The position numbers were made by a program, and so were the translations under genes. 64,000 bases of DNA. Origin: a virus. The stretch is from UHGV virus genome UHGV-1364187. One strand, given 5' to 3'. The notes under the pieces were generated by a model. That model had not been told where the DNA came from and made no database searches. It worked only from the letters and a program-made list of their open reading frames with translations. Shown here in pieces: positions 3,609 through 63,076 of this stretch. Position 1 is the first letter of the stretch; every line of letters begins with the position of its first letter.

Positions 3609-4457
3609 TTACTCTTCCCCCTTTTTAAATATATTTGGAACTGTTATAAAATTATCAGATATAGTTCCAGCCTCATTTAATGTAGTATGAATAATATGTT
3701 CTTTATTATAAATTACATCTGGAATATTCATACCACGTTTTAATACTTCTATGTCAATATCATTACCGTCTGAATGAATAGCATATACATTTGACATAAA
3801 TTTTTTAACTTTTTCTTCATCACCATTAAATAATGATGTTACTCTATAAATAAATTTATCAATATTCATATGTGGATTATCAGGATAACTTTGTAAAGTT
3901 AAATCTTGATAGAATTGGTCAAATTCTGCTATATGTTTGGCTAATCCAACAAATTTGACAGATTTATCAAATTCAATATCAGATGAATCACCAGAATAGT
4001 ATATATAACCATTATAGTGATTTATAGCTAATGCATAACAGTTTTTATATTCCCCATGTTCTACTGGAACAAATAAAATTTCTGTGTCCATAATATCATT
4101 GTAATAATCTTTTACTTCATACATTAACGGATCAACTTTGCACATTCCAAGATATGCTACAATTGAACCTTTATCTGGAAAATATACGGTTGGCTTAATA
4201 CCTTTTATATAATTACAATATTCAATTAAAGAACCTAAACTGCCTACATGATCTGAATGAAGATGAGTAATAATAATATTAACTGTTTTAATATTATCAT
4301 CTATAAGTTTAAGTCTAAGAATCTGTTTAAAAATATCACCACCACAGTCTATAAGTGTAAATACATTATATTCTGGTAACACGAAAAATGCTGAATTGTT
4401 GTGTTGATCTTCATTAAAACAACTTCCTCTACCAATAAAATTTAATAATTGTTCCAT
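3609..4457 (-). CDS. metallo-beta-lactamase-fold hydrolase (possible phosphodiesterase)
   Basis: MBL signature ITHLHSDHVGSLG (HxHxDH) preceded by LIDCGG and followed by conserved His/Asp positions. Confidence 0.65.
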   Translation of the reverse strand: MEQLLNFIGRGSCFNEDQHNNSAFFVLPEYNVFTLIDCGGDIFKQILRLKLIDDNIKTVNIIITHLHSDHVGSLGSLIEYCNYIKGIKPTVYFPDKGSIVAYLGMCKVDPLMYEVKDYYNDIMDTEILFVPVEHGEYKNCYALAINHYNGYIYYSGDSSDIEFDKSVKFVGLAKHIAEFDQFYQDLTLQSYPDNPHMNIDKFIYRVTSLFNGDEEKVKKFMSNVYAIHSDGNDIDIEVLKRGMNIPDVIYNKEHIIHTTLNEAGTISDNFITVPNIFKKGEE

Positions 4458-4474
4458 AATTACATCTCTCCTTT

Positions 4475-5200
4475 TTAATAATTTGAATTATATATTGGAT
4501 TTAAATTTTGAGTAAATTGCAATCTAGCATAATAAGTATATACAGCTCCACTAAATGTCTGATATGCAAGATTCATAAACTCAATATTTTCATTAATAGA
4601 TAAATCTACTATATGATTATTTGCTAAAGGTTTTGTCTTAGATAATTGTAAGATAAAACATCCAGCAATTTCATATCCTTCTTTTATAAGCATATCCATA
4701 TATGCAGCTAATTGACACCAATACTTATAACCAATATGATTAGATGTCTTAAAATCCCCTACATATAATCTTCCATTAATCTTTAGTATTACATCTATAG
4801 TCCCACCATAATATTCACATACAGTAGGTCTTTCTATAGCAAATACTTCTACGTTATAATCTCTATTAAGTTGATTCCACCATGTTTTAAATCCAGAAAT
4901 ACAATTGAAAATTTGATTAGATATATTTCTTGGATATATAGAATAATCGACTTCATAATTACTATCAATCATGATCTTATCACAAAGATCATGAACTATT
5001 GTTCCAATATTAGCATAAAAGTCTAGTTCTTCTTCATAATTTTTATGTCTAAAACCAAGACTATTTGCCCAATTAGTAATATAATCATCATGCATCAATG
5101 ATAATATTTCTGTTACTCTTGGTACATTTCTTCCATTACATTGATATCTATCACAAGATATATATGGAGAGAAATTCATATAAGATAAAATGTTATTCAT
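4475..5200 (-). CDS. PD-(D/E)XK nuclease, RecB/Cas4/lambda-exonuclease-like
   Basis: GTIDVIL...VGDFKTS (D..D-x-K) and QLAAY (QxxxY) motifs; AAAGGAG RBS. Confidence 0.55.
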   Translation of the reverse strand: MNNILSYMNFSPYISCDRYQCNGRNVPRVTEILSLMHDDYITNWANSLGFRHKNYEEELDFYANIGTIVHDLCDKIMIDSNYEVDYSIYPRNISNQIFNCISGFKTWWNQLNRDYNVEVFAIERPTVCEYYGGTIDVILKINGRLYVGDFKTSNHIGYKYWCQLAAYMDMLIKEGYEIAGCFILQLSKTKPLANNHIVDLSINENIEFMNLAYQTFSGAVYTYYARLQFTQNLNPIYNSNY

Positions 5201-5254
5201 TTAACGTTCTCCTTTCATATAAGATTATTATAGTGTTCTAAATTAAGTAAAAAA

Positions 5255-5286
5255 TAAAAAAGATAGAGGGTTTCCTCTATCTTTTA
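5255..5286. terminator. bidirectional hairpin terminator
   Basis: agatagagg/cctctatct stem flanked by A-run and T-run. Confidence 0.55.
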
Positions 5287-5694
5287 TTCTACTTCATACA
5301 CATCATATTGTGCATGTGAGATATTATAATCAAACCCTATTACATATTTTCTATCAGGATCATCTATAAGTTTTTGTATCTCTTTTGGTACTATATTAAT
5401 TATATTACCAACTCCAAAAGATATACATGTACTATCATAATTATCTTTATTTGTACTTGGTACTATCACCTTATGTTTTTTCACTTTACAAGTACAGTTA
5501 TCTAATGTATATTGATTAATACTATATATATTATAATAAATTTTACTATCGTCTAATGTTTCTAATATAGGACCATTCTCTTTGAGTAACTTATCTAAAT
5601 AATGAATATACAATGCTCTATCTTGATTCATATATACTGTTCTTTCTAAACTATCTTTTAATTTATTTACATCTAATTCGAGATTTATTAACAT
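5284..5694 (-). CDS. hypothetical protein
   Basis: 136-aa ORF, overlaps upstream gene by 7 nt. Confidence 0.45.
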   Translation of the reverse strand: MLINLELDVNKLKDSLERTVYMNQDRALYIHYLDKLLKENGPILETLDDSKIYYNIYSINQYTLDNCTCKVKKHKVIVPSTNKDNYDSTCISFGVGNIINIVPKEIQKLIDDPDRKYVIGFDYNISHAQYDVYEVE

Positions 5695-5960
5695 GATAAT
5701 TCACTCCTTTTATTTTTCATATTTTGTTTACGAGCAATAGTAGCTCTTATTAAACATTCTCTTTTATTTTTCTTAATTACTTTTACAACTTTTTGATACC
5801 TTTTCTTACTTAGTTTACGTAATCTTACAGTTAAGTCCAGATGTACTGTAGATTTACTAACGCCGAATACTTCTGCTGTTTCTCTTAGAGTAGATTTGTT
5901 TTTTACATAATAATCCGCTTCATCTAAAATCCTTTGTTTAATACGTGCATTATTTCTCAT
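5688..5960 (-). CDS. spoIIID-like: SpoIIID-family HTH transcription regulator
   Basis: IKQRILDEADYYVKNKSTLRETAEVFGVSKSTVHLDLTVRL aligns closely with B. subtilis SpoIIID (IKERTIKIGKYIVETKKTVRVIAKEFGVSKSTVHKDLTERL); AAAGGAGG RBS; early-promoter motif 30-50 nt upstream. Confidence 0.8.
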   Translation of the reverse strand: MRNNARIKQRILDEADYYVKNKSTLRETAEVFGVSKSTVHLDLTVRLRKLSKKRYQKVVKVIKKNKRECLIRATIARKQNMKNKRSELSC

Positions 5961-5991
5961 AACTAAATCCTCCTTTAATAATCTATATTCA

Positions 5992-6014
5992 TATATATAA
6001 TATATAATTGAAAA
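5992..6014 (-). promoter_or_regulatory. conserved phage early-promoter-like motif (plus-strand text TATATATAATATATAATTGAAAA; functional sense 5'-TTTCAATTATATATTATATA)
   Basis: one of at least 12 near-identical copies located 30-60 nt upstream of minus-strand start codons. Confidence 0.55.
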
Positions 6015-6064
6015 TATTATTACTTGAACATTTACATAATAACTTGTTAAGGAGGAATTGTAAT

Positions 6065-7021
6065 ATGAATGAAACTCAGTTTTTAAAGAAACTTAATGAA
6101 ACATATTTATTTAATGTCACAGACAATTATAGAATTATGATGACTAAGGCTGTAGTTGAATCTGATAGATTGAATATCAGAGATGACAAATTTGAAGATA
6201 TTAGAGCTTCTGTTAGTAGAAGACAAGTAAACTCAGTTATTAGTAGAACTATGAAATCTCCAGATGTTGTATTTATTAAACCTAGTATTCCATTACCAAG
6301 AGCATTAAAAGTATTTACTGTAAAGGATATTAAAACTCCTGGTAACCCATTAAAAGTATTCATAGATATATCAGAAATTATCTATGAAAAAGATGGTGAA
6401 TTTAAAATCGCTTCTGTAGATAAATTAATCGCTTATCTCACATCAGCAATGATGCAATTAATCTACAATTCAGAGCCTAATAGACTTATTAGTAATACAA
6501 CATTAATTGCTCCACTTAGAAGTGGGTTTGCTCAATTGGTATCATACATAATAGATTATCTATATAAGACTAGTAATCTTGACGGTATGAGAGATATGAT
6601 TAAACATATGGCTTCAATGTATTTTGATATTAATATTCTTAAAAGAGATTATAATATATCAAAAGATAGTATAGATGCAGCTGCATTAAAAATATCTGGA
6701 TTATCTAATAGACAGTTGGATGTATTAGAAATCTATACAGAAGATGATACATTTGATAATATTAAAACATTTGTAGAAACATTAAATGAATTACTTAAAG
6801 TACAAAAACTAACTATAGATGTTTTTATGAAAAAATGGTTAGACTTATGTGGTTCTGGTACTCAATTTGCATTAGAATATTTCCCATCATTGTCAGATAT
6901 GTTTACTAATGCTTATTGTTTATCATATATCAATAACCAAAAGACTATAGAAAAGATTGTAGGAAAAGATTTATCTTTATATTCATCTAAGCTTATAGCT
7001 TTAGGAGGAGGATTGATCTAG
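6065..7021 (+). CDS. hypothetical protein (ORF from 6008; likely start ATG 6065 after AAGGAGG)
   Basis: RBS taaggagg 8 nt before ATG 6065; AACA-N6-TA late-promoter-like string at 6031-6044. Confidence 0.5.
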   Translation: MNETQFLKKLNETYLFNVTDNYRIMMTKAVVESDRLNIRDDKFEDIRASVSRRQVNSVISRTMKSPDVVFIKPSIPLPRALKVFTVKDIKTPGNPLKVFIDISEIIYEKDGEFKIASVDKLIAYLTSAMMQLIYNSEPNRLISNTTLIAPLRSGFAQLVSYIIDYLYKTSNLDGMRDMIKHMASMYFDINILKRDYNISKDSIDAAALKISGLSNRQLDVLEIYTEDDTFDNIKTFVETLNELLKVQKLTIDVFMKKWLDLCGSGTQFALEYFPSLSDMFTNAYCLSYINNQKTIEKIVGKDLSLYSSKLIALGGGLI

Positions 7022-10000
7022 ATGAAAGTATTTGATTTAATGAGTAAATTACATAAGAGCACAGATAGTGCTCTTATGGAAACTCAATTGGGACATATTC
7101 CATTAGTATATGAATTACAGAAAGAGAAATTTCCAAGCAATATTAAATATAGACATGAATTAAGAGATTCTAATTCTTATAGAGTTCTTAAACAAGACTT
7201 TGTTAGAACAGGATTAGATGATTCTAAATTTATGAATGCTAATGATTTGTATAAAAATGGTAAAGTAAGAAAGATTATTTGTGTAGATCAAAATGGTTAT
7301 AAAGTGAATGATTCTACTATAAATATAATAATAGATGAAAGAACGTTCTTTATAAATTCAACAGATCCATATGCTGAATTAAAATATTGTATAGTATTTA
7401 TGGAAGATATAGTATATGATAAATCGTCTGTTATATTCGGTATAACAAATGGTATGTTTGTTGGTGGTATTGGTACTAATGAATGTATATCGTCTAAGAA
7501 TCTATTTATGGAAGCAGTGTTTACAACAGATGGGTTAATAGAACCTAAACAACTTAATGCTAGATATAAAGTATTTAAAGAAAATATATATGTAGTAAAG
7601 AATGGTAAGTTTTTATCTCACGATGTAACTCATGTATATGGAAATGTATTCAAAATTAATGATTTTACCGATACGGATAACTGGTTTGTTTATATTATAT
7701 ACTACAAAGATGAAGAATGTATAGATAATGTAAATAAATTAGAAAGTAAAATTAGAATTTTAGATGGAATGTTTCAAGAACTCCCAAACTATATAGAAAA
7801 AATGAGTGATGATTTTGACTATAGAATAGATCCAAATAAATCATATAAAGAAAATCTTCATGATATATTGAATTATATTTCAAATTATAATCATGAAGGT
7901 TTATTACAATTATATCTAGAGAATAAGACTTCTATTATAGAAGAATATACTGGAAAGTATATGATATCTTTAACTAAACCTGGAGATATTTGTGCTTATC
8001 TCCCAAGAAGAAGAAATGGAAAACAATATAATTATATAATTATGTATGTAAATGGATTATTATATAAATATCATGATGAGATAGAATATAATATTACCAA
8101 TATTAAAATACCATTAAAAGAAATCAATCATGAAGACGAGATTTTAATACAATTCTTTTTAGATTGTGGTAATAATACTTATAATACGACTTTTACTAAA
8201 GGTGCAACAAATACTATAAATTTTAGATATATTACTACCAATCCAGCTAATATAGAATTATATTCTCCAGAGTTTGAAGGAAAACATCTTTATGATTTGC
8301 CAGTAGATGATACAAGACCATTAAAAGTCGATTATGAGTATACTATGAATGGAAAAGATATGGAAGTTGAATTAGAAAATCCATATCTATATGGTAAAGA
8401 ATTAGCAATAGTGAATAAAAGACAGTTTAGACATCAAAAGATGCAAATACCAATTAAATATAGAAATAAATTAAGATATAAAGCATATTCTATAAGTACT
8501 ATATTATCTACATATAGAAACAATATTCCAAATAATATAGATGAATTTAATGCTTTATTTAGTAATATGACAGCTACATTAGAAAGTATTATAGATATAC
8601 CTAATGAATTAAATTTTATAGGAGTAGACGAATTCCCACCAGAATATTCTACAGATACATTTGCTATAGAATTAGAAGGATGTTTCTGGGTAGAAAAAGA
8701 AGATATATATAATATAGTGCTATTATCTAATGCTGGATCTAGATTATATATAGATGATCAACTTATGACTGTAGATATAAATGGTAGATTTAATGTAGGA
8801 GATGTAGATAATGGTCCTAATAGATGTAATATATTATTAGATAGAGGATATCATAATATAAAGATAGATTATGTCAATAATGTAGAACATCCATTATTAC
8901 AATTAGCATGGAAAGGATCTACAGAACAATACTATTCTATGATGAATGGAGATTTCTTATATCAAGAATTACCAGACTATTATATTCTTAAATTAAATGA
9001 AACAGATTTTAAATACTGTTTAAATTTTGGTCATTTTATCATGTTCAATGATGGAAGAAGATTATATGATAATGAGGCTTATGTAAAATTACATGGTATA
9101 GACCAAGTATATGATCAATCATATATAATAATATCAAAACCAATTCCAGAAGGAGATTTTATTGATATTTTCTATGTTCCAGATATAATTCTAGAAGTGT
9201 ATAGAGAAGATAGATTACCGGAAGATGGATATATTACTGTAGACAAAGATAATATGCTTAATACAAATCATCCAGAATTGTGTAATGTATATGTCAATGG
9301 TAAACTTATTAATCCTAAGCACATGATTAATCTAAATACTAATACTATGAAAATCAAATCTAATATTCACACTAAATCTTCAGTATGCGTATTAAAGACT
9401 AATATGTATGATGGATATACAGACGCAATATTTGAATATTCAAATGATGTATGGACAGAAGTAACAAATGGAATGTCACTAGAAGTAAAAAATAAATATC
9501 TTGGTGATTATGAAGATATTATCGATGAAGAACCAGATTATTTCAAACCACCATGTGTAGATTTAATATGGGCAATTATTAAGAAATTCTGGATAGATAG
9601 ATTTGGAGTTATCGATGCTGAAATGTTATTCCAATACAATGATGATCCAAGAGTATTAAGAAAGACAAAATTCTTACATGATTATATAGAATCTACAGAT
9701 TATGAAGATAACTCTAATATAGAATATAAATTATATGATCAAGATTATCATAAGTATCATAAGTTTATATGTAAATCACCAACTGCACTAAAATTTGGAA
9801 AACATGAAAATTTAGATCCTAATAAGAAATATTCTATCTCTATGAGTGTATCTTTATATTTAAATTTATCTCAACCAACAGATAGATTTTATTGTGAATT
9901 ATATGGAAGTGGTGGTACTAAACAAATTCCATTATGCTATAACCAAGAAACTTCTTTAGATATATCTCAAGTACCAAAAGTATATATGCTTAGATTATAT

Positions 10001-10207
10001 CTAGATAATATACCAATTACATCAGACTTTAATAATCTTAGAGTAGTATGTAATTTTAAAAATAGTGAAGAATTTGTTAAATTTGAAGATGGTATATTCT
10101 TAGAAGAACATGAATTTTCTAATAGAAATATAGAATCTATCATCATAGATCCATCTGTTATTACAGGAGTTAAACTTCCATATGGAAGTGAATTTGATAA
10201 AGAATAA
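7022..10207 (+). CDS. large hypothetical protein (1061 aa), probably virion-associated
   Basis: long ORF translationally coupled to upstream gene (TAG ATG). Confidence 0.5.
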   Translation: MKVFDLMSKLHKSTDSALMETQLGHIPLVYELQKEKFPSNIKYRHELRDSNSYRVLKQDFVRTGLDDSKFMNANDLYKNGKVRKIICVDQNGYKVNDSTINIIIDERTFFINSTDPYAELKYCIVFMEDIVYDKSSVIFGITNGMFVGGIGTNECISSKNLFMEAVFTTDGLIEPKQLNARYKVFKENIYVVKNGKFLSHDVTHVYGNVFKINDFTDTDNWFVYIIYYKDEECIDNVNKLESKIRILDGMFQELPNYIEKMSDDFDYRIDPNKSYKENLHDILNYISNYNHEGLLQLYLENKTSIIEEYTGKYMISLTKPGDICAYLPRRRNGKQYNYIIMYVNGLLYKYHDEIEYNITNIKIPLKEINHEDEILIQFFLDCGNNTYNTTFTKGATNTINFRYITTNPANIELYSPEFEGKHLYDLPVDDTRPLKVDYEYTMNGKDMEVELENPYLYGKELAIVNKRQFRHQKMQIPIKYRNKLRYKAYSISTILSTYRNNIPNNIDEFNALFSNMTATLESIIDIPNELNFIGVDEFPPEYSTDTFAIELEGCFWVEKEDIYNIVLLSNAGSRLYIDDQLMTVDINGRFNVGDVDNGPNRCNILLDRGYHNIKIDYVNNVEHPLLQLAWKGSTEQYYSMMNGDFLYQELPDYYILKLNETDFKYCLNFGHFIMFNDGRRLYDNEAYVKLHGIDQVYDQSYIIISKPIPEGDFIDIFYVPDIILEVYREDRLPEDGYITVDKDNMLNTNHPELCNVYVNGKLINPKHMINLNTNTMKIKSNIHTKSSVCVLKTNMYDGYTDAIFEYSNDVWTEVTNGMSLEVKNKYLGDYEDIIDEEPDYFKPPCVDLIWAIIKKFWIDRFGVIDAEMLFQYNDDPRVLRKTKFLHDYIESTDYEDNSNIEYKLYDQDYHKYHKFICKSPTALKFGKHENLDPNKKYSISMSVSLYLNLSQPTDRFYCELYGSGGTKQIPLCYNQETSLDISQVPKVYMLRLYLDNIPITSDFNNLRVVCNFKNSEEFVKFEDGIFLEEHEFSNRNIESIIIDPSVITGVKLPYGSEFDKE

Positions 10208-14235: not shown

Positions 14236-15408
14236 TTACAATCTTGTCTTAAGAACTTCTAAAATCTTAAATTGTAAAGTTGATGGATTAATTAATTCAT
14301 CACCTCTCATATTTACAACATTATCAATATTTACTCCATAATTATTACACATACCAGATGCAGTTTCTTTATTAATCTTACCAATTTCAATATGGTAATC
14401 AAATCTACCATTTCTAAGTATAGCATCATCTAATTTATCTTTATAATTAGTAGTACCAATAAAGATACAATTATTTGGAGAGTTAATACCATCTAATACA
14501 TTAAGAAGATCACCAATTGTATCATATTTCATACTCTTCATATAATTATCAAATGGATTATATTGTTTATCTTTCTTATTATCATCTTTATCAGATCTTG
14601 TTCCTGTAGAACAATCTATATCTTCAAACAATATTACAGAATTAGTCATTCTTGAAATATTATTTATAAGATTATCATTAATATAATTAACTTTTATAAT
14701 TACTAATCTATATCCCATATAACTAGCAATAGCCTTAGCAAATGATGATTTACCAGTTCCAGGTTCTCCATATAATAGAATACCTATATTATGTTTTATT
14801 TGATGCTTTTTATAGATAAAGTCATCTTTCTTAAACTTCTCAAGTATATCTATAATCTGTTCTTTTTTGTCTGAGAATATATTATTCATTGAATATTTAT
14901 CATATTCATATTGATAAAAACTACCATTTTCTGAATATTGTCTAACATCTAATTTATTTACACTTTCTCCTCCTTTGTTTATATAATTAGTAATATATTC
15001 AAATTCTTGCTTCGCATTGACTCCACATATAGAAATATTTATTATATGATTACGAGAATCAGAAGCATCAAATGGAATATTACTAATTGTATATAAACAC
15101 TTATTATGCCATCCAGTGAAATGTAGATTAGAAGGTATATTATTGTCACTTGATGTTGATTTACTTTCATCTAAATATCTATTTGGTTTATAAAATTTAT
15201 TTAAATTTGGAAATAATTCATGCAAGACTTTACATGTATTGTTATAAGGTTCTAACCAAAACATATCATCAACTTGTATCTTATAACATATCTTTTGTTC
15301 AATTGATTTCTTCACTAATGGTGTAACTGTTCTTACAACACTATTTCCTAAGTTTGTTAATCCTGCTACTGCTGCTAATTTCATTAATTGTTTAACTTCT
15401 TTATTCAT
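14236..15408 (-). CDS. AAA+ ATPase, Bcs1-like classical AAA (paralogue 1)
   Basis: C-terminal AAA module: IGILLYGEPGTGKSSFAKAIA (Walker A), ILFEDIDCS (Walker B), IFIGTTNYKDKLDDAILRNGRFDYHIEIG (second region of homology); about 200-aa unique N-terminal domain. Confidence 0.75.
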   Translation of the reverse strand: MNKEVKQLMKLAAVAGLTNLGNSVVRTVTPLVKKSIEQKICYKIQVDDMFWLEPYNNTCKVLHELFPNLNKFYKPNRYLDESKSTSSDNNIPSNLHFTGWHNKCLYTISNIPFDASDSRNHIINISICGVNAKQEFEYITNYINKGGESVNKLDVRQYSENGSFYQYEYDKYSMNNIFSDKKEQIIDILEKFKKDDFIYKKHQIKHNIGILLYGEPGTGKSSFAKAIASYMGYRLVIIKVNYINDNLINNISRMTNSVILFEDIDCSTGTRSDKDDNKKDKQYNPFDNYMKSMKYDTIGDLLNVLDGINSPNNCIFIGTTNYKDKLDDAILRNGRFDYHIEIGKINKETASGMCNNYGVNIDNVVNMRGDELINPSTLQFKILEVLKTRL

Positions 15409-15622: not shown

Positions 15623-16498
15623 TTAATTTCTTTCACATAATAATTTTAATTGTAATTCACTTTGATTATATGGTGCTTCCATATCTTTAAGAATCTTATC
15701 TGGATCGGCACCAAAATATCTACACATATTTTCTGCAACTTCTCTATTATGTATTGGTTTAACTTCAAAGATCATATCAAATCTACCACTACGTAATAAA
15801 GCTTCATCTAATTTTTCTATATGATTCGTAGTAGCAATAAACATAACTTCTTCTTGAGAGTTAATACCATCCATTACATTTAACAATCCAGCGATATTAT
15901 TTTTATCTTCTACAACTTCCCCATTATCATTAACATTATTAGTTTTCTTATCTAAATATCTATCTATATCTTCAAATACATATATTGTTTCTTCGTATTT
16001 TGGGAGAGTTTTTAATTTAAATGGATCATTTACAGTAATAATACGTCTATTTGTATAATATGCTATAGCTTTGATAAGACTAGTTTTTCCTGTACCTGGT
16101 TCGCCATATAATAAAACTCCAGTCTTATGTATAATATGTTTTTCTTTATAAAAATCTGTATTTGAATTAAATTTGTCTATAAATTTAATAAGTGGTGATA
16201 TATCATCAAAGAATAATTCATCTAAAGATTTACAATATACACGATTAATTAAACCGTTTATAGTATTTGTATTACTATCAAATTCTTGAACATATACAGA
16301 ATTTGGTCTTGATTTAATAGGTGGATGATATTCATCAATTTCTTTAAAAATTTCCAATTTATTATGTCCTATAATATAAAACTTACACGTATTAAAATTT
16401 TTCATTACCTTATTGTCAGTACCTATAGTTTTGAATTCACTTTTTATATCAAATATAATATATGATGATTTATATATACATATATGAATACCGCTCAC
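15623..16498 (-). CDS. AAA+ ATPase, Bcs1-like classical AAA (paralogue 2)
   Basis: TGVLLYGEPGTGKTSLIKAIA, IYVFEDIDR, MFIATTNHIEKLDEALLRSGRFDMIFEV. Confidence 0.75.
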   Translation of the reverse strand: MSGIHICIYKSSYIIFDIKSEFKTIGTDNKVMKNFNTCKFYIIGHNKLEIFKEIDEYHPPIKSRPNSVYVQEFDSNTNTINGLINRVYCKSLDELFFDDISPLIKFIDKFNSNTDFYKEKHIIHKTGVLLYGEPGTGKTSLIKAIAYYTNRRIITVNDPFKLKTLPKYEETIYVFEDIDRYLDKKTNNVNDNGEVVEDKNNIAGLLNVMDGINSQEEVMFIATTNHIEKLDEALLRSGRFDMIFEVKPIHNREVAENMCRYFGADPDKILKDMEAPYNQSELQLKLLCERN

Positions 16499-21354: not shown

Positions 21355-22011
21355 TTATTTTTCTTTTGGTTCTATTGTTGCTGGAACAATTAATTGTTCA
21401 ATTCTATCAACTTTTTGTTGTAATTGGTTAATCTGATTGTACATAAATCTATTTTGTTCATATAAAGGTGTAATCATTGCACTGAATAACCTACCCATAT
21501 CATATACAATTTGTTGCGTATTGAAATGATATTCTGTTTCTCCTAAAGAATCATTTATATATGTTTCGTTAGTTTTATCATCAATAGATTCCATTATTTC
21601 TTTAGAATCATATATTGGATTTGGTAATTGAAAATTTGGATCGTGGTTTTGATCTGTATAACTTCCATTCATATAGATAGATGGTAACAATTCATAAGAT
21701 ATCCAATTCTTAAATTCTTTAGCACATGGCATCTTTGAAGCATAAATAAGATTGAATACATCTGGAAGTTTAATAAAGTTCGTCATTTGCTCTCTACTGA
21801 TAGAATCAGTGACGTTACGTTTCGTAACGTCATCACAATGATCATTAATAACCTTTCTAAAACTATTCTTACTATACCCTAAAATATCTAATACATCATT
21901 AGCACAGAATAATGTATCCGTTTGGTTACCATTTTCTGCTGGTATGATTCTTACACTTCCTAGATTGTTAAAGATAAATTCTTGTACTTTATTCATTTTT
22001 GATTCCTCCAT
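21355..22011 (-). CDS. Bro-N domain protein (antirepressor-like DNA-binding), paralogue 1
   Basis: Bro-N signature MNKVQEFIFNNLGSVRIIPAENGNQTDTLFCANDVLDILGYS...FIKLPDVFNLIYASKMP...EFKNWISYELLPSI; C-terminal LIVPATIEPKEK. Confidence 0.65.
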   Translation of the reverse strand: MEESKMNKVQEFIFNNLGSVRIIPAENGNQTDTLFCANDVLDILGYSKNSFRKVINDHCDDVTKRNVTDSISREQMTNFIKLPDVFNLIYASKMPCAKEFKNWISYELLPSIYMNGSYTDQNHDPNFQLPNPIYDSKEIMESIDDKTNETYINDSLGETEYHFNTQQIVYDMGRLFSAMITPLYEQNRFMYNQINQLQQKVDRIEQLIVPATIEPKEK

Positions 22012-25451: not shown

Positions 25452-25477
25452 AAAATCATCTCCTTTATAATTTTATT

Positions 25478-25506
25478 CATATTTATAATATATTATTGAA
25501 AATCAT
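25478..25506 (-). promoter_or_regulatory. early-promoter-like motif copy
   Basis: TATAATATATTATTGAAAATCAT 27-55 nt upstream of ATG 25451. Confidence 0.45.
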
Positions 25507-25578: not shown

Positions 25579-28500
25579 ATGGCTATTACAAATTTTACTA
25601 ATAAAGCTAAACGTTTCTCAGTATTAGTATTACCATATGAGAAAAAAGACATGGCTGTAGCTAAAGAGTTAATTATTGATTATGATAATGGTCATATCTA
25701 TGTAGTAGATAAAACTGGTACTAGAATTATTAGTATCACAAAAGATTTACAAGATTCTATTGATAATATCATAAACAATGGTGGGAATATTATCAATGTA
25801 ACAAATCCTAGTGATAATACAACACAAATTTTAAACGACGTATTAAAGAATATATATAATTATGTCAATGCTTCAGTAGAAGGATTATGTATTAAGAAAC
25901 CAGCTAGATTATTATGTGATACTAATATAGCTGTACTTAATGGATTACCTGGAGATATTGATAATGTAACAGTTAATGATGGAGATGATATTCTCCTTAT
26001 TGCACAAGATGATAAAAGATTAAATGGTAAATGGAAAGTAAATGCTAGTGGTGATTGGAAAAGATCAGATGATCTTAATTCTCAAACAGAACTTGTTAGA
26101 AGTGCATTCTTCTTTATTGATGAAGGGGATAAATATAAAAGTACTGGATGGTTATTAACAACTGATAATCCAGTTATTGATTCTTCTGATTTAGAGTTTG
26201 AAATATTTTCTAGACAAGAAGACATTCTAGCTGGAACTGGTTTAGTAAGAACTGGTAATGAATTTTCATTAGCGGAATGTGTTATTCCTGGAACTGCAAC
26301 TAAAGTAAGATGGGACCAATATGGTAGAATTGTAGGATGGGAAAATCCTACAACATTATTTGAATATGGTATCACTGATGCTGTTCCGTTATCACATATA
26401 GGTTCTGGTGGAGATCAACATGCTATTGTCACTGTAGATGAGCATGGTTTTTCGTCTAAAGAAGATAAACAAATGCTTGACTCTCTCATGCCAACCATTG
26501 AAGATTTGGAAATAAAAACAAACGAGAAATTAAATATTAAGTCAGAAATTGAATTTATATCACAAGATCCGATAGAAATTCAATTACAAGGAGAAACAGA
26601 GATTGTAAATGACCTACTTACAGATTCTGCAACTAAAGCTTTAGCTGCTGGACAAGGTAAAGTATTATACGATTTATTAAACTATCTATTTCAAAATACT
26701 AATGAGGATGGAACTCCATATACAAAATTATGGATGGGAACATTATCTCAATATTATAATCTATTAGAAAAAGATCCCGTTACTTTATACATGTCAACCG
26801 ATTATGTAAATGAAAATACAGCACTTTCTATGGGTTCTAATGTAGAAGAGATTATTATGATGCTTCAATTAATGCAATCTTCTAAAGTAAGTAAAGAGGG
26901 AGATATTGTTAATGGAGATCTTATTGTCGGTTCTTCTGTTAAAAACCAAAATCTTAAAGTGTATGGTAATATTTATATTAACGGTGTATTATTAGATCAA
27001 GCATTTGCACCAATAGATCATGAACATGATGATATGGTTTCACAAATAGACTTTGATGCTAAATTAAAGAAAAAAGCTGATAAATATCATACTCATGTTA
27101 TACCAGATGTTGAAGGTCTTAAAGAAGCTTTGGACAGTAAAGCTGCTATAGACCATACACATAATTTAATATATTATGATAAAGAAGAATTAGATTTCTT
27201 ATTATCTACAAAAGCTCCAGTAAACCATAAACATAAAGTAGCCGATATTATAGATTTATTTACTAAAGGTGATAGTACTGGTGCTAAAATGGAATTATGG
27301 TTAAAAAATATGATTAGTGATCCATTACATAGAACTGTAACCGATGCTCAAATTGCAAGATGGGAACAAATGGTTAATGGAACTAGTACTAATACTGGAG
27401 GAATATCTAAACTTGAATTAGACTCACATAATAACGATTCTAATGCACATCCAGATATTAGAGAATCTATTAGAGAAATTTTAGACGAGTTAGGCTCTGC
27501 AAGTTTAACTTCTAATTTAAATATTAAAGAATCTATTAATGAATTATATACAAAATTACCAACAGTAACAAATTCAGCAAAATTAATGAAAGAAGCTTGT
27601 AATGTAATTATAACACAGGATAATACAACTAACGTTCCTATTGGATTTACTGGATTTGATCCAGATATTCATACATTATTAGTATTTAAAAATAGTACGT
27701 ATTATCATCCAATAGAAGATTATACAATGAATGGAACTACAAGTATTGATTTAACTAAAGAAATTGTTCCATCTGGTACTATATTTACATTTGTTGTTTT
27801 ATGGGTAGAAGGCGACGTATTAGGTGGAGGATCTGGTTCTGGTTCAATATCTCAAGATATTTATGATCTATTAGATAATAAAGCTGATCTTGATCATGAA
27901 CACAAATTAAAAGATCTTATAGATGATCCATTACATAGAACTGTAACAGATGCTATGATTGATAGATGGAATAATGGAACAACTAGTAGTGGAAATAATA
28001 ACGGAATAGATGCAGCTATGCTTATTGCTGCCCATAATGTAGATACTACATCTCATGATGATCTCAGAACTAAAGTGGATGAAATTTATAACAATATGTC
28101 CAATGTTTTATTTAAGACAAAAGTTATAGAACTTATTCCGACAAGAGATAATCAAACAGAATTTAGTGTAAATATGAATGATTTAGCTAAAGAAAAATAT
28201 GGTCATTTTGTAATGTTTAATTCTACTGCTACATCAGATTATGTATTGTCTGATTATAAATTGAAATTTAATGAACCATGTAATTTAACTGATAAAATAA
28301 AATTAGTATTATTCTGGATTGATGGTAATATTCTAGTTCAAAATTCAGCAGCTGGATCTGTTGCTTGGGATTCATTAACACAAGCTGTTAAGAATACAAT
28401 TAATAATAAGATTGATAAAACAGAAGTATATACTAAAACAGAATTAGACACTCTTATAAATTCACTAGCAAGCACTACGATAACAGATGATTTACAAAGA

Positions 28501-28992
28501 CAAATTGATGATTTAAAAAATAACAGTACAAGTTCTAGTAATGTATATACAAAATCAGAAATTGATACAATTTTATTAAATAAAGCTAATAGTGGTGATA
28601 CTTATACTAAAACAGAAATAGATAATAAGTTTCAAACTATAGATAATGCAATAAATAGTGCTGCTAATATGGCAACTAAGACTGATCTTGATAATTATTA
28701 TACTAAAACAGAAATAGATAATAAGTTTCAAACTATAGATAATGCAATAAATAGTGCTGCTAATATGGCAACTAAGGCTGATCTTGATAATTATTACAAT
28801 AAGACAGAGATAGATAATAAACTATCTGGTTATTATTCTAAAACTGAAATTGATAATAAAATAAATGCTCTATCAAATAGAATAACAGCACTTGAATCTA
28901 GAAAAACATTAGTTCCTATTACAGAAGCAGAGTATAATGCGTTATCAACAGCAAATAAAAATGATACTACAAAAATATACGCAATATATTAA
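25579..28992 (+). CDS. tail fibre protein with His-x-His metal-site repeats and YTKTEID repeats
   Basis: spaced DHEHD/YHTHV/DHTHN/NHKHK/DHEHK motifs (compare T4 gp37/gp12 HxH iron sites), duplicated DPLHRTVTDA segment, C-terminal YTK(T/S)EID repeats; AACA-N6-TA string 33 nt upstream. Confidence 0.65.
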   Translation: MAITNFTNKAKRFSVLVLPYEKKDMAVAKELIIDYDNGHIYVVDKTGTRIISITKDLQDSIDNIINNGGNIINVTNPSDNTTQILNDVLKNIYNYVNASVEGLCIKKPARLLCDTNIAVLNGLPGDIDNVTVNDGDDILLIAQDDKRLNGKWKVNASGDWKRSDDLNSQTELVRSAFFFIDEGDKYKSTGWLLTTDNPVIDSSDLEFEIFSRQEDILAGTGLVRTGNEFSLAECVIPGTATKVRWDQYGRIVGWENPTTLFEYGITDAVPLSHIGSGGDQHAIVTVDEHGFSSKEDKQMLDSLMPTIEDLEIKTNEKLNIKSEIEFISQDPIEIQLQGETEIVNDLLTDSATKALAAGQGKVLYDLLNYLFQNTNEDGTPYTKLWMGTLSQYYNLLEKDPVTLYMSTDYVNENTALSMGSNVEEIIMMLQLMQSSKVSKEGDIVNGDLIVGSSVKNQNLKVYGNIYINGVLLDQAFAPIDHEHDDMVSQIDFDAKLKKKADKYHTHVIPDVEGLKEALDSKAAIDHTHNLIYYDKEELDFLLSTKAPVNHKHKVADIIDLFTKGDSTGAKMELWLKNMISDPLHRTVTDAQIARWEQMVNGTSTNTGGISKLELDSHNNDSNAHPDIRESIREILDELGSASLTSNLNIKESINELYTKLPTVTNSAKLMKEACNVIITQDNTTNVPIGFTGFDPDIHTLLVFKNSTYYHPIEDYTMNGTTSIDLTKEIVPSGTIFTFVVLWVEGDVLGGGSGSGSISQDIYDLLDNKADLDHEHKLKDLIDDPLHRTVTDAMIDRWNNGTTSSGNNNGIDAAMLIAAHNVDTTSHDDLRTKVDEIYNNMSNVLFKTKVIELIPTRDNQTEFSVNMNDLAKEKYGHFVMFNSTATSDYVLSDYKLKFNEPCNLTDKIKLVLFWIDGNILVQNSAAGSVAWDSLTQAVKNTINNKIDKTEVYTKTELDTLINSLASTTITDDLQRQIDDLKNNSTSSSNVYTKSEIDTILLNKANSGDTYTKTEIDNKFQTIDNAINSAANMATKTDLDNYYTKTEIDNKFQTIDNAINSAANMATKADLDNYYNKTEIDNKLSGYYSKTEIDNKINALSNRITALESRKTLVPITEAEYNALSTANKNDTTKIYAIY
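28603..28794 (+). repeat. near-perfect 96-bp tandem duplication (2 copies, 1 mismatch) inside the fibre gene
   Basis: actaaaacagaaatagataataagtttcaaactatagataatgcaataaatagtgctgctaatatggcaactaag(a/g)ctgatcttgataattatta repeated; encodes YTKTEIDNKFQTIDNAINSAANMATK(T/A)DLDNY twice. Confidence 0.8.
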
Positions 28993-29071: not shown

Positions 29072-30397
29072 ATGGAAATATCATATGGAAATAAAAGAGT
29101 TCTAAAAGTGTTTAGACAAGATAAATGTGTTAGTATTGGAATTCCTAAATCTAAATTATTACTTCATTTAGATAGTATAGGAATGGAGAATACTAAACTC
29201 GAGACTAGAAATAAATTCTATGATATAAGTGGAAATAATAATCATTTTAATCTATATAATTTCGATTTTAATGATGAAAATGGTTGGTTAGAAAATAACC
29301 TTCATTTTAATGGTGAAACTACATATATTGAGAATTATACATTTAATACTATAAATGTATATACTATATCTATATCTTTTCATGTCCCACCTAATGGTAA
29401 TTTTGCTGGATCATTTCCTGGTATAAATAAAGTATATACTAATAATGGAACTTTATATATCAATGTGTCAAGTAGTTCAAAAATATCATTAAATAGTGTA
29501 ATAAAACCAAACAAATTCTACAATCTCATTATGACATATGAAGCTGGAAGATTTACTGTATATCTTAATGGAGAGAAACGTAGAGTGTATAGTAATGTGA
29601 ATAAAGGATATGTAACTAATTTCTGTTTAGGTAGAAGTGTTGATTTTACATATGGAGAATTTATGTTACATTCAGTGCAATATTATTCCAAAGCATTAAC
29701 TGCACAAGAATTAAAAACGTTAAGTGATTTAGAACAAAAAAGATATATAGTATATTACGATAAGAATATGGTTATGGATGTAAGAGGGTATAACTCTATG
29801 CTAAAATACGGAGGATTTATTAGTATTAGAGATAATAGTATACATCATAATCACTTAAGATGTAGCAAATGGTATACACATTTTCCTAAAACTAGATCTT
29901 ATGCTATGACTGGAACAAATAGTATGAATATAGTTGGAAGACCTTTACTTATGGATTCATTCACACTAGAATTTGTAATAAGTCATATAAAATACATGTT
30001 TGCTGAAGAAGTATTTTTAATGGGTAAATATAAAAAAGGAGAATATGGTATAGAAATAACTCTTAATGTAAGAGGGTTAATCTTACGTATTCATGGTAAA
30101 ACTCAATTAGAATATTTATATCCTATAAATTATACAAATAAAAGAACTTCTATTAGTATAGTATATGATAGAAAGAATCAACAATTGATATTATATCATA
30201 ATGCTAATAGAGTTAAATTATTTGAGAATGTAGATTATATATCAAATATAAATGATATGACTATGAATTTCGCAAGAAAAGATGGATATTTCCCATTCAT
30301 TGGAAATATCTGTTGTATAAGAATGTATAATGAAGCTATATCTAGTTCATGTATCAATGATAATTATGAACAAGATATGGATATTTATAGACAATAG
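29072..30397 (+). CDS. LamG-like (concanavalin-A-type lectin/glucanase fold) domain protein, fibre-associated
   Basis: DISGNNNHFNLYNF...NGW...LHFNGETTYIEN motif typical of Laminin_G_3 jelly-roll domains; second similar module downstream. Confidence 0.5.
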   Translation: MEISYGNKRVLKVFRQDKCVSIGIPKSKLLLHLDSIGMENTKLETRNKFYDISGNNNHFNLYNFDFNDENGWLENNLHFNGETTYIENYTFNTINVYTISISFHVPPNGNFAGSFPGINKVYTNNGTLYINVSSSSKISLNSVIKPNKFYNLIMTYEAGRFTVYLNGEKRRVYSNVNKGYVTNFCLGRSVDFTYGEFMLHSVQYYSKALTAQELKTLSDLEQKRYIVYYDKNMVMDVRGYNSMLKYGGFISIRDNSIHHNHLRCSKWYTHFPKTRSYAMTGTNSMNIVGRPLLMDSFTLEFVISHIKYMFAEEVFLMGKYKKGEYGIEITLNVRGLILRIHGKTQLEYLYPINYTNKRTSISIVYDRKNQQLILYHNANRVKLFENVDYISNINDMTMNFARKDGYFPFIGNICCIRMYNEAISSSCINDNYEQDMDIYRQ

Positions 30398-30411: not shown

Positions 30412-31128
30412 ATGGGAAAATATTCTATAAAACCAGGTATAATCCATATTGGAACTGATGCATTATCTCCATATGTTCATACAAGTACAGTAATAGTAGA
30501 CAAGAATACAAAACTTAAAACTATACTTGATGAAACTTATAGAAAATATTATGAAAGAAATAAACCTACATGGGAAAGGGTGACAGTAAATATATCACCA
30601 GATGATTGGATTGCTGCTGATGGTATGTATAAATATCATATAATCTCTTATAAAGATAGAGAATATATGAAGTATAATATTATATGTGAAACTGAAGTTA
30701 GTATTTCTAATATGCTAATATTATTAGCAAATGAAAGATACAAGTTTATTAAATCTGAATGTATAGATGGTGAGGTTTATACATATACTAATGTGAAACC
30801 TAAACATAATATACGATTAGACATATTAACTATATGGACTGGGAATACATTATATTTTCAAGGAACACCAAAAAATCTAAAAGTAAATTTAAAACAAAAC
30901 AAATTTACTGTTTTAGATGATGAAAATTGTATGTATAAAGTAAATGTTGGTGATTTAGATTTAGCAACAAATCATTTCGTTACATGTACTTTTGACAATT
31001 ATAATATGCAAAAGTTTTTACAAAGTAATAATAGATTTATAACAGCATCATATTCGTATGGAGAAATAACAATATATACAGAATTTCCATTTGATGCAAC
31101 TGTTATATTAATAATTCATAGATGTTAA
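30412..31128 (+). CDS. hypothetical protein
   Basis: 238 aa; AAAGGAGG RBS. Confidence 0.45.
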   Translation: MGKYSIKPGIIHIGTDALSPYVHTSTVIVDKNTKLKTILDETYRKYYERNKPTWERVTVNISPDDWIAADGMYKYHIISYKDREYMKYNIICETEVSISNMLILLANERYKFIKSECIDGEVYTYTNVKPKHNIRLDILTIWTGNTLYFQGTPKNLKVNLKQNKFTVLDDENCMYKVNVGDLDLATNHFVTCTFDNYNMQKFLQSNNRFITASYSYGEITIYTEFPFDATVILIIHRC

Positions 31129-31142
31129 GGAGGTTTATTATT

Positions 31143-34100
31143 ATGGCTAATCAAGATTTAGAAACGTTTGGGTATATTCTTCATCCAGGATTTGCTCAAA
31201 CAGCACAAGGTGAAAAATGTTCACCGTTAACTCATGTATCAACAGTATATGATGGTGATAAATCATTGACAGAGATTATAAAAGAAATTACAGACGAGAA
31301 GAATAAATTACCAGAAATTACTGTAGTAGAAGTAGAAGTTAATCCAGATGATTGGAATGAACAACCAGATGGATCATTTGAATATGATTATACAGATTCT
31401 ATATTAAACGATAAATTAATGACAGAAGTTCAAGCTGATAAAGAAAACATGAAAAAAATAGTAAATGATAAAATTAGATGGGCTTTAACTGAAGATATTG
31501 TTGGTAATACAGTACCAATATTCATTCAGAAAAAACCTACACAACGATTAATATTGAAATTATTAATATATAGCAAATATATTAAGATACCATTATCTAT
31601 CCAAGAACCAAATTGGGAAGCAAATAATGTATCTAAAGAATATTTGTATGCAGATGATGTAATATTAGCATCACATCTAGCATTATTCAGACTAGATAGA
31701 ACAAATATAAATAAATTCTTAGATAATAATTACTCTATAACAAAAACTAAAAAAGGTGAAGTTACAGTATATACAGATAATGCAGTATCGTTAGATAGTC
31801 AGGTTATTTTACTAGATACTGGTTTAACTGCATCTGATTTAGATGATGATAATGGAGGAACTGGAGGTGGAACAAGTACAACACCATCAACTCCAAAAGA
31901 TGATAAAGTTGGAGATGTATTAACAGCAGTTCAAAGATGTAACTTAACTGGTTCTCTAAAGGATTATGAAATTTCAGAAAATGTTGTCGAAAAAGGTATG
32001 GGAGAATATGTAAATGCTTTACCAAATCTCCATATACTAAAATCTAAAGATATTCTTATTACAGATACTAATAATAGTTTTGAAGATTTTGATAGTACAT
32101 ATTCATCATATGTAATATTAAAAGCTTCTGATTTTACTGGAGGAACATTCTCATTATCTGGAGAATCATTACGTAATTTTTCATATGTAGCATTTCCTAC
32201 AATAGATTATGTAAATGGTATATTTGCTATGGTAAGTTTCTTAACACCATATGCAAATGCACAAACACCATTAGTTAAAGATAGTGATGATATCTATAAA
32301 CTAATACCATTTACTAGTAGAATATTTGATACTAGTAATGTATTTGATTCTGCTAAAACAAATTCTATCAAAAATCGTGATAGTAGATATGCTTTAGGTA
32401 ATAATGGATTCTTTGGATGGATTAAAGAAGCTAATAGTGGAACAGAAATAGATGATATGTATAATGTAAACTGTAGGGTTACTAATCTAAGACATATGAA
32501 CAATAATATCGTAAATAATACTGTAACTGTAAAGACTAATGAACTTGTGAATAGTACATCTGACAGATTACCATTAACAGATCAAAAGAAACTTACAATT
32601 ATGAATGAACAGTATGATAGTATATCTACATTATTAGAAGACGAAGCTGAACTCAAATATATTATCAATCCATCTAGCGGTTCTTATGATATATCGCAAT
32701 CACAAAATAAACAATTATTGTCTAATAATGGTAGTGTGTATTATATTAAGTATTGTTCAAATAAGAGTTTAGGTGGTATTATTAAATCTGGAAATGCCCT
32801 ACTGTACGTAAATGCTATGCAAACAGGATACTTACAAATATTAGAAGCATATGCAGATATAAATCAATGTAGTAATACTGATATTTCAAATACTACACTA
32901 TATTCTTCATTATCTAATCCTAGTGAATTATTAGGATCTTCATATAAGAAATCTGCAATTGAATTAAGAACTTCATTAGAATTCGGAAATCCTTCATGTT
33001 TCAATTCTATTGTAGAAAAAAATGTGACTTATATTGGTCATGATAATGGATTAATATTAGTACTTGATAATACTACACTAGATGTAATTTATTCAATTAA
33101 TATTAAAAAGATAATTATTGATAATACAGATCAATTCTATAATAACTATAAGATCAATACTATAGATTGGTTTGATGATAATTGTTTTGCTTTTACGTGT
33201 GAATATAATCCATATGTATATTGTATTAATAAAACTGATGGATCATTAGTATGGGCACATAATAGCGGTATATCAGAAGGATTACAAGTAGTAAGTAGTT
33301 TAAACCAATCAGTTTATTTCTGTTATAGAAATAAAGATGATCAAATAAGATTAGCCGAATGGAAGAAGTTTGCTAATAATAACAATAGTGGAAACACAAA
33401 TACATCTAGTGGAGAAGATCCTTGGAGAAAAGTTTTAGATCTACCAACTAATGTAATGTTTAGTAGATCATGTGTATTGGGAGATAAAATTTACATTATA
33501 GGTGGATTACAACCAAGAGATATGTATATTTTTGATGGTAATAATTTAATAAAATCAAATATAGAATTGCCATATCCATTCATGGACGGTTGTGTTATTG
33601 GGTATGATGGTAAAATTCATATGCTAGGTGGATCAGTGACAGATAGTAAAAATCTACATTATACATTCGACGGTACTAAATGGGAAAAGATGAATGATTT
33701 ACCATACGATTTTACTAATGGTAGTGTAGTTAGTACATATAATACTTATTATAATACACCAATGATGTATCTTGTTGGAGGAACAGAATATAATACAAAT
33801 AATAAACTTACAACATATTATAATAATAGTGGAAAATACGAAGTGCGTACACATCCAGTTAGTTTTAAAAGAACATGCTCTGTATATTATAATGATGATC
33901 TTCATATTCTTGGAGGTCAAGACACATCAAAGAGTCATTATTATAATGGGTCATTATATAAATTAGAAGATATACCATATCAATTATATGGTGGTGATGC
34001 TGTAGTTTATAATGATAAGATTCATATCTTCGGTGGTGGAGGTGGAAAACGTCGTCATTATAGTTATGATGGAAATTCGTGGACTAGAGAGAAAGATTTA

Positions 34101-40492: not shown

Positions 40493-40986
40493 AGGCTCCG
40501 TCTTCACATAGAGTCGTGACTTCTATGCAGTTCTCTTATGAACTTCTATGAGTATTACTCATAAGGAGAGACTATATCTTCATCTTTTACTATTCTTATA
40601 TTATTTCAAATATAAGATACTACTAGCAGTCAGATGCCTTGCACTTCGGATATACTATATCCTACTCTACTCACTTCGTCTATATCTAATTTATTAGATA
40701 TACCTTATTTTTAACTAGATTACTAGTATATTAGCTTTCGATAGTCGTTGAACCTTCTCCTATATAATTTATATAAGAGCTTGGCTGCTGATTGGACATT
40801 GTTTGTTACTTGGCACGATACTTAGGCTCTCACCATATATCATCTTAATGATTATTTCTGTCTTTCGACTGCCATTCACGCTTACCTGTTACAGTTACGT
40901 TGTAGCTCATTAAGCATTAGCCCTTCCCAGACAAGTTCACAAGGTTTTTCTCCGTACATTTCTGTAGGGAGGACCCATCCACAAAT
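40493..40986 (-). mobile_element. group I self-splicing intron (ORF-less, about 0.49 kb, T4 td-like core) interrupting the beta' gene; boundaries approximate
   Basis: minus-strand P, Q, R and S core elements found in canonical order (coordinates in the intron finding); less AT-rich than flanks; stop codon of the upstream ORF lies inside it. Confidence 0.7.
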
Positions 40987-42687: not shown

Positions 42688-42689
42688 TT

Positions 42690-43622: not shown

Positions 43623-43660
43623 TATAATACACTCTCCTTTAGTATTATTAAATATATACT

Positions 43661-43689
43661 CACATATATAATATATAATCAAAATGAAT
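43661..43689 (-). promoter_or_regulatory. early-promoter-like motif (AATCAAAAT variant)
   Basis: CACATATATAATATATAATCAAAATGAAT next to terminator 43686-43721. Confidence 0.45.
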
Positions 43690-63048: not shown

Positions 63049-63076
63049 TTATTTCGATTATATATTATAAATATGA
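63049..63076 (+). promoter_or_regulatory. early-promoter-like motif in plus-strand functional orientation
   Basis: TATTTCGATTATATATTATAAATATG 49-76 nt upstream of ATG 63125. Confidence 0.45.

Follow-up and report, generated by a model that had tools for sequence, protein, structure and literature searches.

On the minus strand of the window, by which we mean the whole 64-kb stretch of viral DNA that was analysed, positions 5688..5960 encode a 90-aa HTH protein of the SpoIIID family (MRNNARIKQRILDEADYYVKNKSTLRETAEVFGVSKSTVHLDLTVRLRKLSKKRYQKVVKVIKKNKRECLIRATIARKQNMKNKRSELSC) with an ATG start, which was identified from its open reading frame and from Pfam, PHROG, PDB, and fold matches. A Shine-Dalgarno sequence (AAGGAGG, 5969..5975, minus strand) was read from the sequence at a spacing of 8 nt to the ATG. 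It is preceded by an early-type promoter element (TTTTCAATTATATATTAT-ATATAT-G, 5990..6014, minus strand), for which the predicted transcription start is G5990, leaving a 30-nt leader to the start codon. The SpoIIID-like gene is followed by a 136-aa ORFan (5284..5694, minus strand) and by an intrinsic terminator with a 12-bp stem and a T-run (5258..5285, minus strand). The unit thus reads, in order, early promoter, Shine-Dalgarno sequence, SpoIIID-like gene, 136-aa ORF, terminator, and the late-type promoter of the exonuclease and replication genes.

The family assignment was supported by sequence and by fold. The 90-aa protein matched the Pfam SpoIIID profile PF12116 with 67.9 bits against a gathering cutoff of 27 (E 8.8e-19) over profile positions 4-81 of 82, and PHROG 11726 (sporulation stage III protein D) with 74.8 bits. 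All generic HTH families in the Pfam search fell under their thresholds; the similarity to SpoIIID, which the original prediction had read from the HTH region, therefore covers the full domain and goes beyond a generic HTH. A phmmer search against the PDB retrieved B. subtilis SpoIIID (2L0K, E 2.6e-8) over residues 7-79. The AlphaFold2 model, built from a 10-sequence alignment, reached a pLDDT of 89.9 and predicted helices at residues 2-20, 25-32, 36-50, and 52-88, of which 36-50 (SKSTVHLDLTVRL) would be the recognition helix and 52-88 a continuous, basic, C-terminal helix. When this model was compared with the PDB by Foldseek, 2L0K was the top and sole strong match (TM 0.67/0.65, probability 1.0, 38% identity), and all matches after it had E values of about 1. 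In the family alignment, the near-invariant residues were all kept (R10, T24, R26, A29, S35, K36, T38, D42, L47, V58, N65, and R72), and the HTH core FGVSKSTVHxDLTxRL was intact. The product of the ORF is a full-length, diverged SpoIIID-family protein. The identical protein was found on 18 metagenome contigs, the longest being a 256.5-kb contig from a gut metagenome, and the locus was base-for-base identical in 8 independent assemblies, which left no variation for a selection analysis.

The near identity to host SpoIIID that had been claimed is an overstatement. The HTH peptide ETAEVFGVSKSTVHLDLTVRL is identical to its B. subtilis counterpart VIAKEFGVSKSTVHKDLTERL at 15 of 21 positions, whereas the complete proteins share 33-38% identity, depending on the alignment. 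On the NCBIfam equivalog model of SpoIIID (TIGR02844), the 90-aa protein scored 66.6 bits, under the cutoff of 111.5. The same model gave 154 bits for B. subtilis SpoIIID, 149 for a bacterial copy (P0007) lying in the canonical spoIID-M23 peptidase-spoIIID-mbl context, 106 for gp43 of phage CP51, and 83.8 for gp42 of phage phi3626. P0007 is 45% identical to the 90-aa protein. In the phage, the gene neighbours are a virion protein, the ORFan, an exonuclease, an MBL hydrolase, and a DnaB-like helicase, and there is no spoIID/mbl synteny. The protein is a member of the SpoIIID family and not a SpoIIID orthologue.

Two positions of divergence concern the parts expected to touch DNA. The HKD motif of the canonical recognition helix is HLD in the 90-aa protein (K to L), and the canonical C-terminal ERHIRGGxATKxKY, with its RHIRGGxATK motif, is replaced by RECLIRATIARKQN; R72, A76, and K78 are kept, while R69, H70, G73, G74, T77, K80, and Y81 are replaced, and the segment RKQNMKNKR is basic. 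Among 112 single-domain representatives, HKD co-occurred with RGG in 61 of 70 cases, compared with 12 of 27 for a hydrophobic residue at that position (Fisher P = 3.6e-5). The 90-aa protein belongs, along with phi3626 gp42, to the minority subtype that has a hydrophobic residue in place of K and lacks RGG. SpoIIID's basic C-terminal region is described as one of two regions required for DNA binding (Himes et al. 2010, as cited in PMC3789822). Because this second DNA-contact region is remodelled and the recognition-helix lysine is replaced by leucine, site preference or affinity may differ from those of SpoIIID.

In an exhaustive HMMER search of 1.84 billion representatives, no other sequence shared the 50%-identity cluster of the 90-aa protein. 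The search retrieved about 1,400 SpoIIID-family clusters at E <= 1e-3, and their single-domain matches were mostly about 40-50% identical. The closest family representative (P0019), at 58% identity, is located on 0.7-kb contigs that lack the early motif and is thus uninformative. The closest copies in bacterial genomes are 40-53% identical and are scattered through many Clostridia MAGs, and they gave no host signal.

The second gene of the cassette is probably translationally coupled to the first, because the two reading frames share 7 nt, the ATG of the second lying within the end of the SpoIIID-like gene. The 136-aa ORFan had no Pfam or PHROG match even at E <= 10, contained no detectable YopX domain, and found itself as the sole match among 5.8 billion clusters; its single-sequence AlphaFold model was unusable (pLDDT 33). 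The terminator scan returned 2 matches against 0.2 expected, and the terminator at 5258..5285 closes the two-gene operon.

Elements of the form AACA-N6-TA, corresponding to the AR9 late promoter consensus AACA-(6N)-TA/G (PMC5312081), lie on both sides of the cassette. One of them (AACATTTACATA, 6027..6038, plus strand) is located before the divergent virion-protein gene (6065..7021), and the other (AACACTATAATA, 5226..5237, minus strand) just downstream of the terminator and before the exonuclease gene (4475..5200). Across the window, 16 of 62 genes, among them the virion gene at 6065 and the exonuclease gene, had AACA-N6-TA in the 80 nt upstream, while 6.8% was expected (P = 2.9e-6). The element at 5226..5237 would give the exonuclease and replication genes a late-type promoter of their own, apart from the early cassette. 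The SpoIIID-like gene is thereby placed at a divergent junction of early-type and late-type promoters.

The conserved early promoter, named as such in the original prediction, was confirmed as a sequence element. A 25-nt element (TTTCAATTATATATTAT-N6-G) recurs across the 64-kb window. The 20-mer ATTATATATTATAWATATGA, counted with <=3 mismatches, occurred 15 times in the window (6 exact) compared with 2.8 +/- 1.5 times in shuffled sequences, and the copy of the SpoIIID-like gene itself (5989..6008, minus strand) is a consensus copy. About 13 copies are intergenic, each 18-50 nt upstream of a Shine-Dalgarno sequence and an ATG, and with a single exception they lie on the minus strand. For AR9, the early promoters that the injected virion RNA polymerase recognises have an experimentally defined consensus of AAATATATATTAT-(6N)-G(+1) (PMC5312081); the window core AATTATATATTAT-(6N)-G, located at 5990..6010 (minus strand) before the SpoIIID-like gene, agrees with it at 12 of 13 positions and has the identical 6-nt spacing to the G. 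The early motif also precedes genes for a beta' fragment of a non-virion RNAP, for two Bro-N/Ant-like proteins, and for an RNase H, a set that fits an early class. In a scan for sigma-70-type promoters, matches were no commoner than in shuffled sequences, and none stood out for the SpoIIID-like gene. Both the sequence itself and the homologous transcription system give good support to the putative early-type promoter, and from the similarity to the AR9 consensus we infer that the SpoIIID-like gene would be expressed early.

The phage from which the window comes is a gut jumbo phage of 256 kb (256.5-kb contig, ERZ27229639 k119_250412), and the window itself has 26% GC and no tRNA genes. The viral origin assumed for the sequence was borne out by its gene content: virion structural proteins, tail-fibre-like proteins, an endolysin, and split RNA polymerase genes, including two beta/beta' fragments at 40882..42147 (phrog_2987, 138 bits) and 45129..46382 (phrog_2962, 191 bits). 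Other genes in the window encode the DnaB-like helicase, a Cas4-like exonuclease, the MBL hydrolase, the RNase H, and the two Bro-N/Ant-like proteins. We considered it next to impossible that bacterial DNA carrying the spoIIID of the host, or an ORF arising by chance, accounts for the gene. The family name was the one point in favour, and against it stand the phage neighbours, the sub-cutoff equivalog score, the strong Shine-Dalgarno sequence, the full-length profile match, the confident fold, and the identity in 8 independent assemblies.

The nearest isolates in tblastn searches, at 22-33% identity, were AR9, PBS1, Goe21, phiR1-37, Staphylococcus S6-like phages, and the Fusobacterium JD-Fnp phages, which represent the jumbo-phage clade that has both a virion and a non-virion RNA polymerase; the RNAP beta' of AR9, PBS1, and phiR1-37 was among the proteins matched. 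Uracil DNA is found in PBS1, AR9, phiR1-37, and S6, and phage PMB12 is PBS1-like. A Ugi homologue, which is a marker for uracil DNA, was not detected within the 64 kb, and nothing is concluded from this result. A tblastn search of INPHARED gave no SpoIIID-family gene in AR9, PBS1, or the other jumbo phages there, and megablast of positions 4000-9000 against INPHARED gave no near-identical phage. In IMG/VR, the SpoIIID query retrieved two distant loci only and the virion-protein query none. The endolysin points only generally to Bacillota as the host.

Homologues of the adjacent virion protein revealed a large uncultured clade with contigs of up to 240 kb. In the closest relative (L099; ENA ERZ27302611 k141_1801795), the virion protein is 65% and the exonuclease 72% identical, and the same slot is occupied by a gene for a 219-aa SpoIIID-YopX fusion (PF12116, 89 bits; C-terminal YopX PF09643, 59 bits). 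Next come a 164-aa ORF, to which the N-terminus of the 136-aa ORFan bears a weak resemblance, and a counterpart of the terminator; conservation extends to the early motif and to the two late motifs. The SpoIIID domains of the two phages are 45% identical while the flanks are 65-72% identical, which implies that the domain has diverged fast or been replaced. Five other relatives (L100, L101, L102, L103, and L105) have the exonuclease and virion genes side by side, and the fragments examined contained no SpoIIID-family ORF. Because the slot holds a SpoIIID-YopX gene in L099 and nothing in the five other relatives, the cassette is accessory and its slot variable. Its absence from most of the related phages marks it as optional, an addition of the host-takeover or auxiliary-regulator class that lies outside the core transcription programme.

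SpoIIID homologues in phages have been known since phi3626 (Zimmer et al. 2002, as cited in PMC3714127). They have been reported for human-gut phages, and phages of spore-formers, gut viromes included, are enriched in sporulation homologues, of which spoIIID is one (PMC10294663). According to the available accounts, none of the phage homologues has been characterised experimentally (PMC3714127, PMC10294663). We also found tandem SpoIIID-domain proteins on a phage-like contig beside RecT/YqaJ. Two overviews of jumbo phages mention neither SpoIIID nor phage sporulation genes. Phage-encoded SpoIIID homologues as such are therefore not new, having their own PHROG (11726) and being represented in gut-phage surveys and in phi3626. 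What is new is the setting in an AR9-like jumbo phage with its own RNA polymerases, the clean architecture of the early operon, and the sister SpoIIID-YopX fusion.

The gene is very probably accessory and expressed early, and it very probably encodes a SpoIIID-fold regulator that binds DNA sequence-specifically, in an uncultured AR9/PBS1-like jumbo phage whose bacterium, on the best explanation of the data, would be a low-GC Gram-positive gut bacterium. On infection, a virion-packaged phage RNA polymerase would start at G5990 of the AATTATATATTAT-N6-G promoter and produce a short bicistronic mRNA, covering the SpoIIID-like gene and the 136-aa ORFan and ending at the terminator 5285..5258. The small protein, probably monomeric, would then bind specific DNA sites through its SpoIIID-type helix SKSTVHLDLTVRL and its basic C-terminal helix, and would alter transcription at these sites, most likely by repression or occlusion. 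As to the targets, we would give roughly one third of the weight to host genes, SpoIIID-regulated sporulation genes included, one third to phage DNA, and the rest to others, such as resident prophages or competing elements. The B. subtilis-type SpoIIID box is reportedly WWRRACARNY (attributed to Halberg and Kroos in 1994). This box occurred 77 times in the 64-kb window compared with 65 +/- 7.6 expected, which was not significant. An unbiased k-mer enrichment of the intergenic regions in the window returned Shine-Dalgarno, terminator, and promoter words only, and no operator-like motif.

It is possible, if somewhat unlikely, that the target is host sporulation, with the protein mimicking SpoIIID, occupying host SpoIIID boxes, and mis-timing the sigmaE-to-sigmaK mother-cell programme. 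Sporulation would be blocked, with the cell staying productive, or it would be steered, with phage DNA trapped in the spore. The SpoIIID family is otherwise confined to endospore-forming Bacillota, spoIIID homologues are enriched in spore-former phages as noted above, and spore conversion by phages is documented, PMB12 and SP10 being examples (PMC3714127). In its recognition helix the protein comes very close to SpoIIID (with 15 identities among the 21 HTH positions), yet the HKD lysine and the RGG hinge, which co-vary in the canonical type, are both lost. Likewise, a 45%-identical relative sits in the canonical sporulation context, but the protein is distant from every bacterial SpoIIID (at most about 50% identity) and scores 66.6 bits against about 150 for true orthologues. 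Being accessory and presumably early, the gene has the features expected of a host-takeover gene; however, activation by SpoIIID depends on RNA polymerase with sigmaE or sigmaK, a form that vegetative cells lack, and host mRNA was strongly lowered overall by AR9 infection (PMC5312081).

A regulator directed at the phage itself, which would bind phage DNA and tune the early-to-late switch by shutting off early promoters of the virion RNAP, by autoregulation, or by modulating promoters of the non-virion RNAP, is an equally possible, if somewhat unlikely, reading. The position of the gene at the divergent early/late promoter junction is consistent with it, as are the homologues of phi3626 and CP51, which lie among early and replication genes beside other HTH regulators, and the tandem SpoIIID-domain proteins beside RecT/YqaJ suggest that the fold serves phages as a general DNA-binding module. 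However, five of the six related phages have no SpoIIID-family gene at the locus or elsewhere in the fragments examined, so the common transcription programme does not need it, and the 64-kb window (64 of 256 kb) held no operator-like repeat beyond the promoter motifs. We consider it improbable that the protein serves conflict between elements, either by interfering with prophages or competing phages that use SpoIIID-like regulators or as part of an anti-defence or exclusion module together with the ORFan. SpoIIID-like regulators are indeed present in temperate Clostridium phages, the slot is a hotspot of variable accessory content, the gene has an ORFan as its partner, and the SpoIIID domain diverges faster than its flanks (45% versus 65-72% in L099). 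This support is circumstantial, and neither gene matched a defence or anti-defence family in Pfam or PHROG.

The reading of an accessory early DNA-binding regulator can be extended, as a rather doubtful conjecture, to a jumbo phage with AR9-like RNA polymerases and autonomous transcription, possibly with uracil DNA, whose early, diverged SpoIIID mimic intervenes in the mother-cell sporulation of gut clostridia, either stalling sporulation or ensuring that phage DNA is trapped in spores. If true, jumbo phages would for the first time be linked functionally to the control of late sporulation, and the SpoIIID-YopX fusion of L099 would hint at a role for the uncharacterised YopX family. Spore formation decides how gut Clostridia persist and are transmitted, and the sporulation regulators of phages have so far only been catalogued. 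The locus offers a clean case, with one small gene, a defined promoter, a predicted start, and a terminator; the related phages that lack the cassette provide a natural control and the SpoIIID-YopX fusion a natural variant. Here the SpoIIID fold is used by a phage other than a temperate siphovirus, one that is not dependent on the host RNA polymerase. Its use by a phage with its own RNA polymerase makes the question of whether host or phage DNA is the target a sharper one. The AR9-type grammar of early and late promoters is conserved in a distant, uncultured clade of gut phages.

Compared with known systems, the window phage shares with AR9 and PBS1 the homologous RNAP beta/beta' fragments, the divergent layout of early and late promoters, and the AACA-N6-TA late-type motifs before virion genes. 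Unlike in the early promoters of AR9 and PBS1, the conserved block in the window phage reaches further upstream (TTTCAATT), and the protein identities to AR9 are just 25-30%. B. subtilis SpoIIID, a mother-cell transcription factor that represses and activates sigmaE/sigmaK genes, resembles the phage protein in length (93 versus 90 aa), in its four-helix HTH fold (TM 0.67), in the FGVSKSTVHxDLTxRL core, and in its basic C-terminal segment. It differs in having a GG break where a continuous helix (52-88) is predicted for the phage protein, and the phage gene is phage-borne, behind a promoter of the phage-RNAP type, and outside any spoIID/mbl synteny. The SpoIIID-YopX fusion of L099, for its part, retains the RGG motif and has the YopX domain. 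The products gp42 (ORF42) of C. perfringens phage phi3626 and gp43 of vB_CpeS-CP51 are, like the 90-aa protein, phage-encoded single-domain proteins of about 90-100 aa that score below the TIGR02844 cutoff and depart from RGG in the C-terminal motif, and their genes lie within early/replication modules. Their identity to the 90-aa protein is about 38-44%, depending on the alignment, and they belong to temperate siphoviruses of 33-39 kb that depend on the host RNA polymerase and carry sporulation-type sigma factors, whereas the window phage is a jumbo phage of about 256 kb that encodes multisubunit RNA polymerases itself and has an early promoter of the AR9 type.

A set of near-identical copies of an early-type element, TTTCAATTATATATTAT-N6-G, was distributed across the window. 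The element was identical at 12 of 13 positions to the early promoter consensus of jumbo phage AR9, which is recognized by its virion RNA polymerase (RNAP) (PMC5312081). Near-identical copies were located on the minus strand at 5990, 12054, 16782, 22048, 37531, 42165, 43661, 46950, 47566, 56878, 58926, and 60686, and on the plus strand at 63059; a copy with one mismatch was found on the minus strand at 25477-25496. From their sequence, these elements define a putative early regulon, whose members include genes for an RNAP beta' fragment, two Bro-N/anti-repressor (Ant)-like proteins, RNase H, and several ORFans. As both Bro-N/Ant-like genes (21355..22011, minus strand; 63125..63811, plus strand) are preceded by early-type promoters, the SpoIIID-like protein is accompanied by other putative early DNA-binding or regulatory proteins.

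Two split multisubunit RNAP genes (phrog_2987, 40882..42147; phrog_2962, 45129..46382; both minus strand) are separated by ORFs with no assigned function (42214..43682) and an HNH endonuclease gene with extra HTH domains (43865..45052, minus strand), and the layout of this cluster looks like a homing-endonuclease insertion. Many intrinsic terminators had the stem words ATAGAGAGAT / ATCTCTCTAT in common (e.g., the one at 5258..5285 and those that precede the genes with ends at 12610, 21264, 22693, and 23470). These words were 39-fold enriched in the intergenic DNA of the window, and their common use suggests a stereotyped terminator.

SpoIIID domains were also found in other arrangements. At the syntenic position of the sister phage (L099:6231-6890, minus strand), the domain is fused to YopX in a protein of 219 aa. 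No function for YopX (PF09643) was found in the literature searched; being joined here to an HTH that is sequence-specific, it may act in a process connected with DNA. Some proteins of 215-599 aa (P0011-P0018) carried two to six SpoIIID domains in tandem, an unusual arrangement for an HTH that binds as a monomer. Two such tandem genes (107-1120 and 1831-2562) adjoin dNK, YqaJ, RecT, and RusA in the phage-like contig L098. The 864-bp locus at 5201..6064 of the window was identical or differed by one base in eight independent gut metagenome assemblies (L001-L008), and thus, it belongs to one clonal phage lineage that is widespread across samples.

Among the other genes of the window, an MBL-fold hydrolase (3609..4457, minus strand) matched the anti-Pycsar nuclease Apyc1 (PF23023) below threshold, scoring 27.5 bits where the cutoff is 50, and Apyc1 was also listed in the precomputed annotation; judged from these matches, the hydrolase may be a cyclic-nucleotide nuclease with an anti-defence role. 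Two paralogous, adjacent AAA+ ATPases (14236..15408 and 15623..16498, minus strand) both matched phrog_7485 at approximately 142-145 bits. A cluster of large plus-strand proteins (7022..10207, 25579..28992, 29072..30397, 31122..34184, and 34258..35985) contained PA14, tail-fibre repeat, laminin-G, Kelch, and Listeria-Bacteroides repeat domains. Such proteins probably serve in receptor binding or adhesion and could aid host identification.

A second promoter-like motif, AACA-N6-TA, was present within 80 nt upstream of 16 of the 62 window genes (P = 2.9e-6), with start codons at 3107, 5200, 11185, 12610, 18026, 21264, 38331, 40074, 45052, 48523, 60277, and 62997 on the minus strand and at 6065, 25579, 29072, and 51140 on the plus strand. 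This motif equals the late promoter consensus of the AR9 non-virion RNAP. As the AR9 late promoter is recognized on the uracil-containing template strand (PMC5312081), the gut phage may, by analogy, have dU-DNA like AR9.
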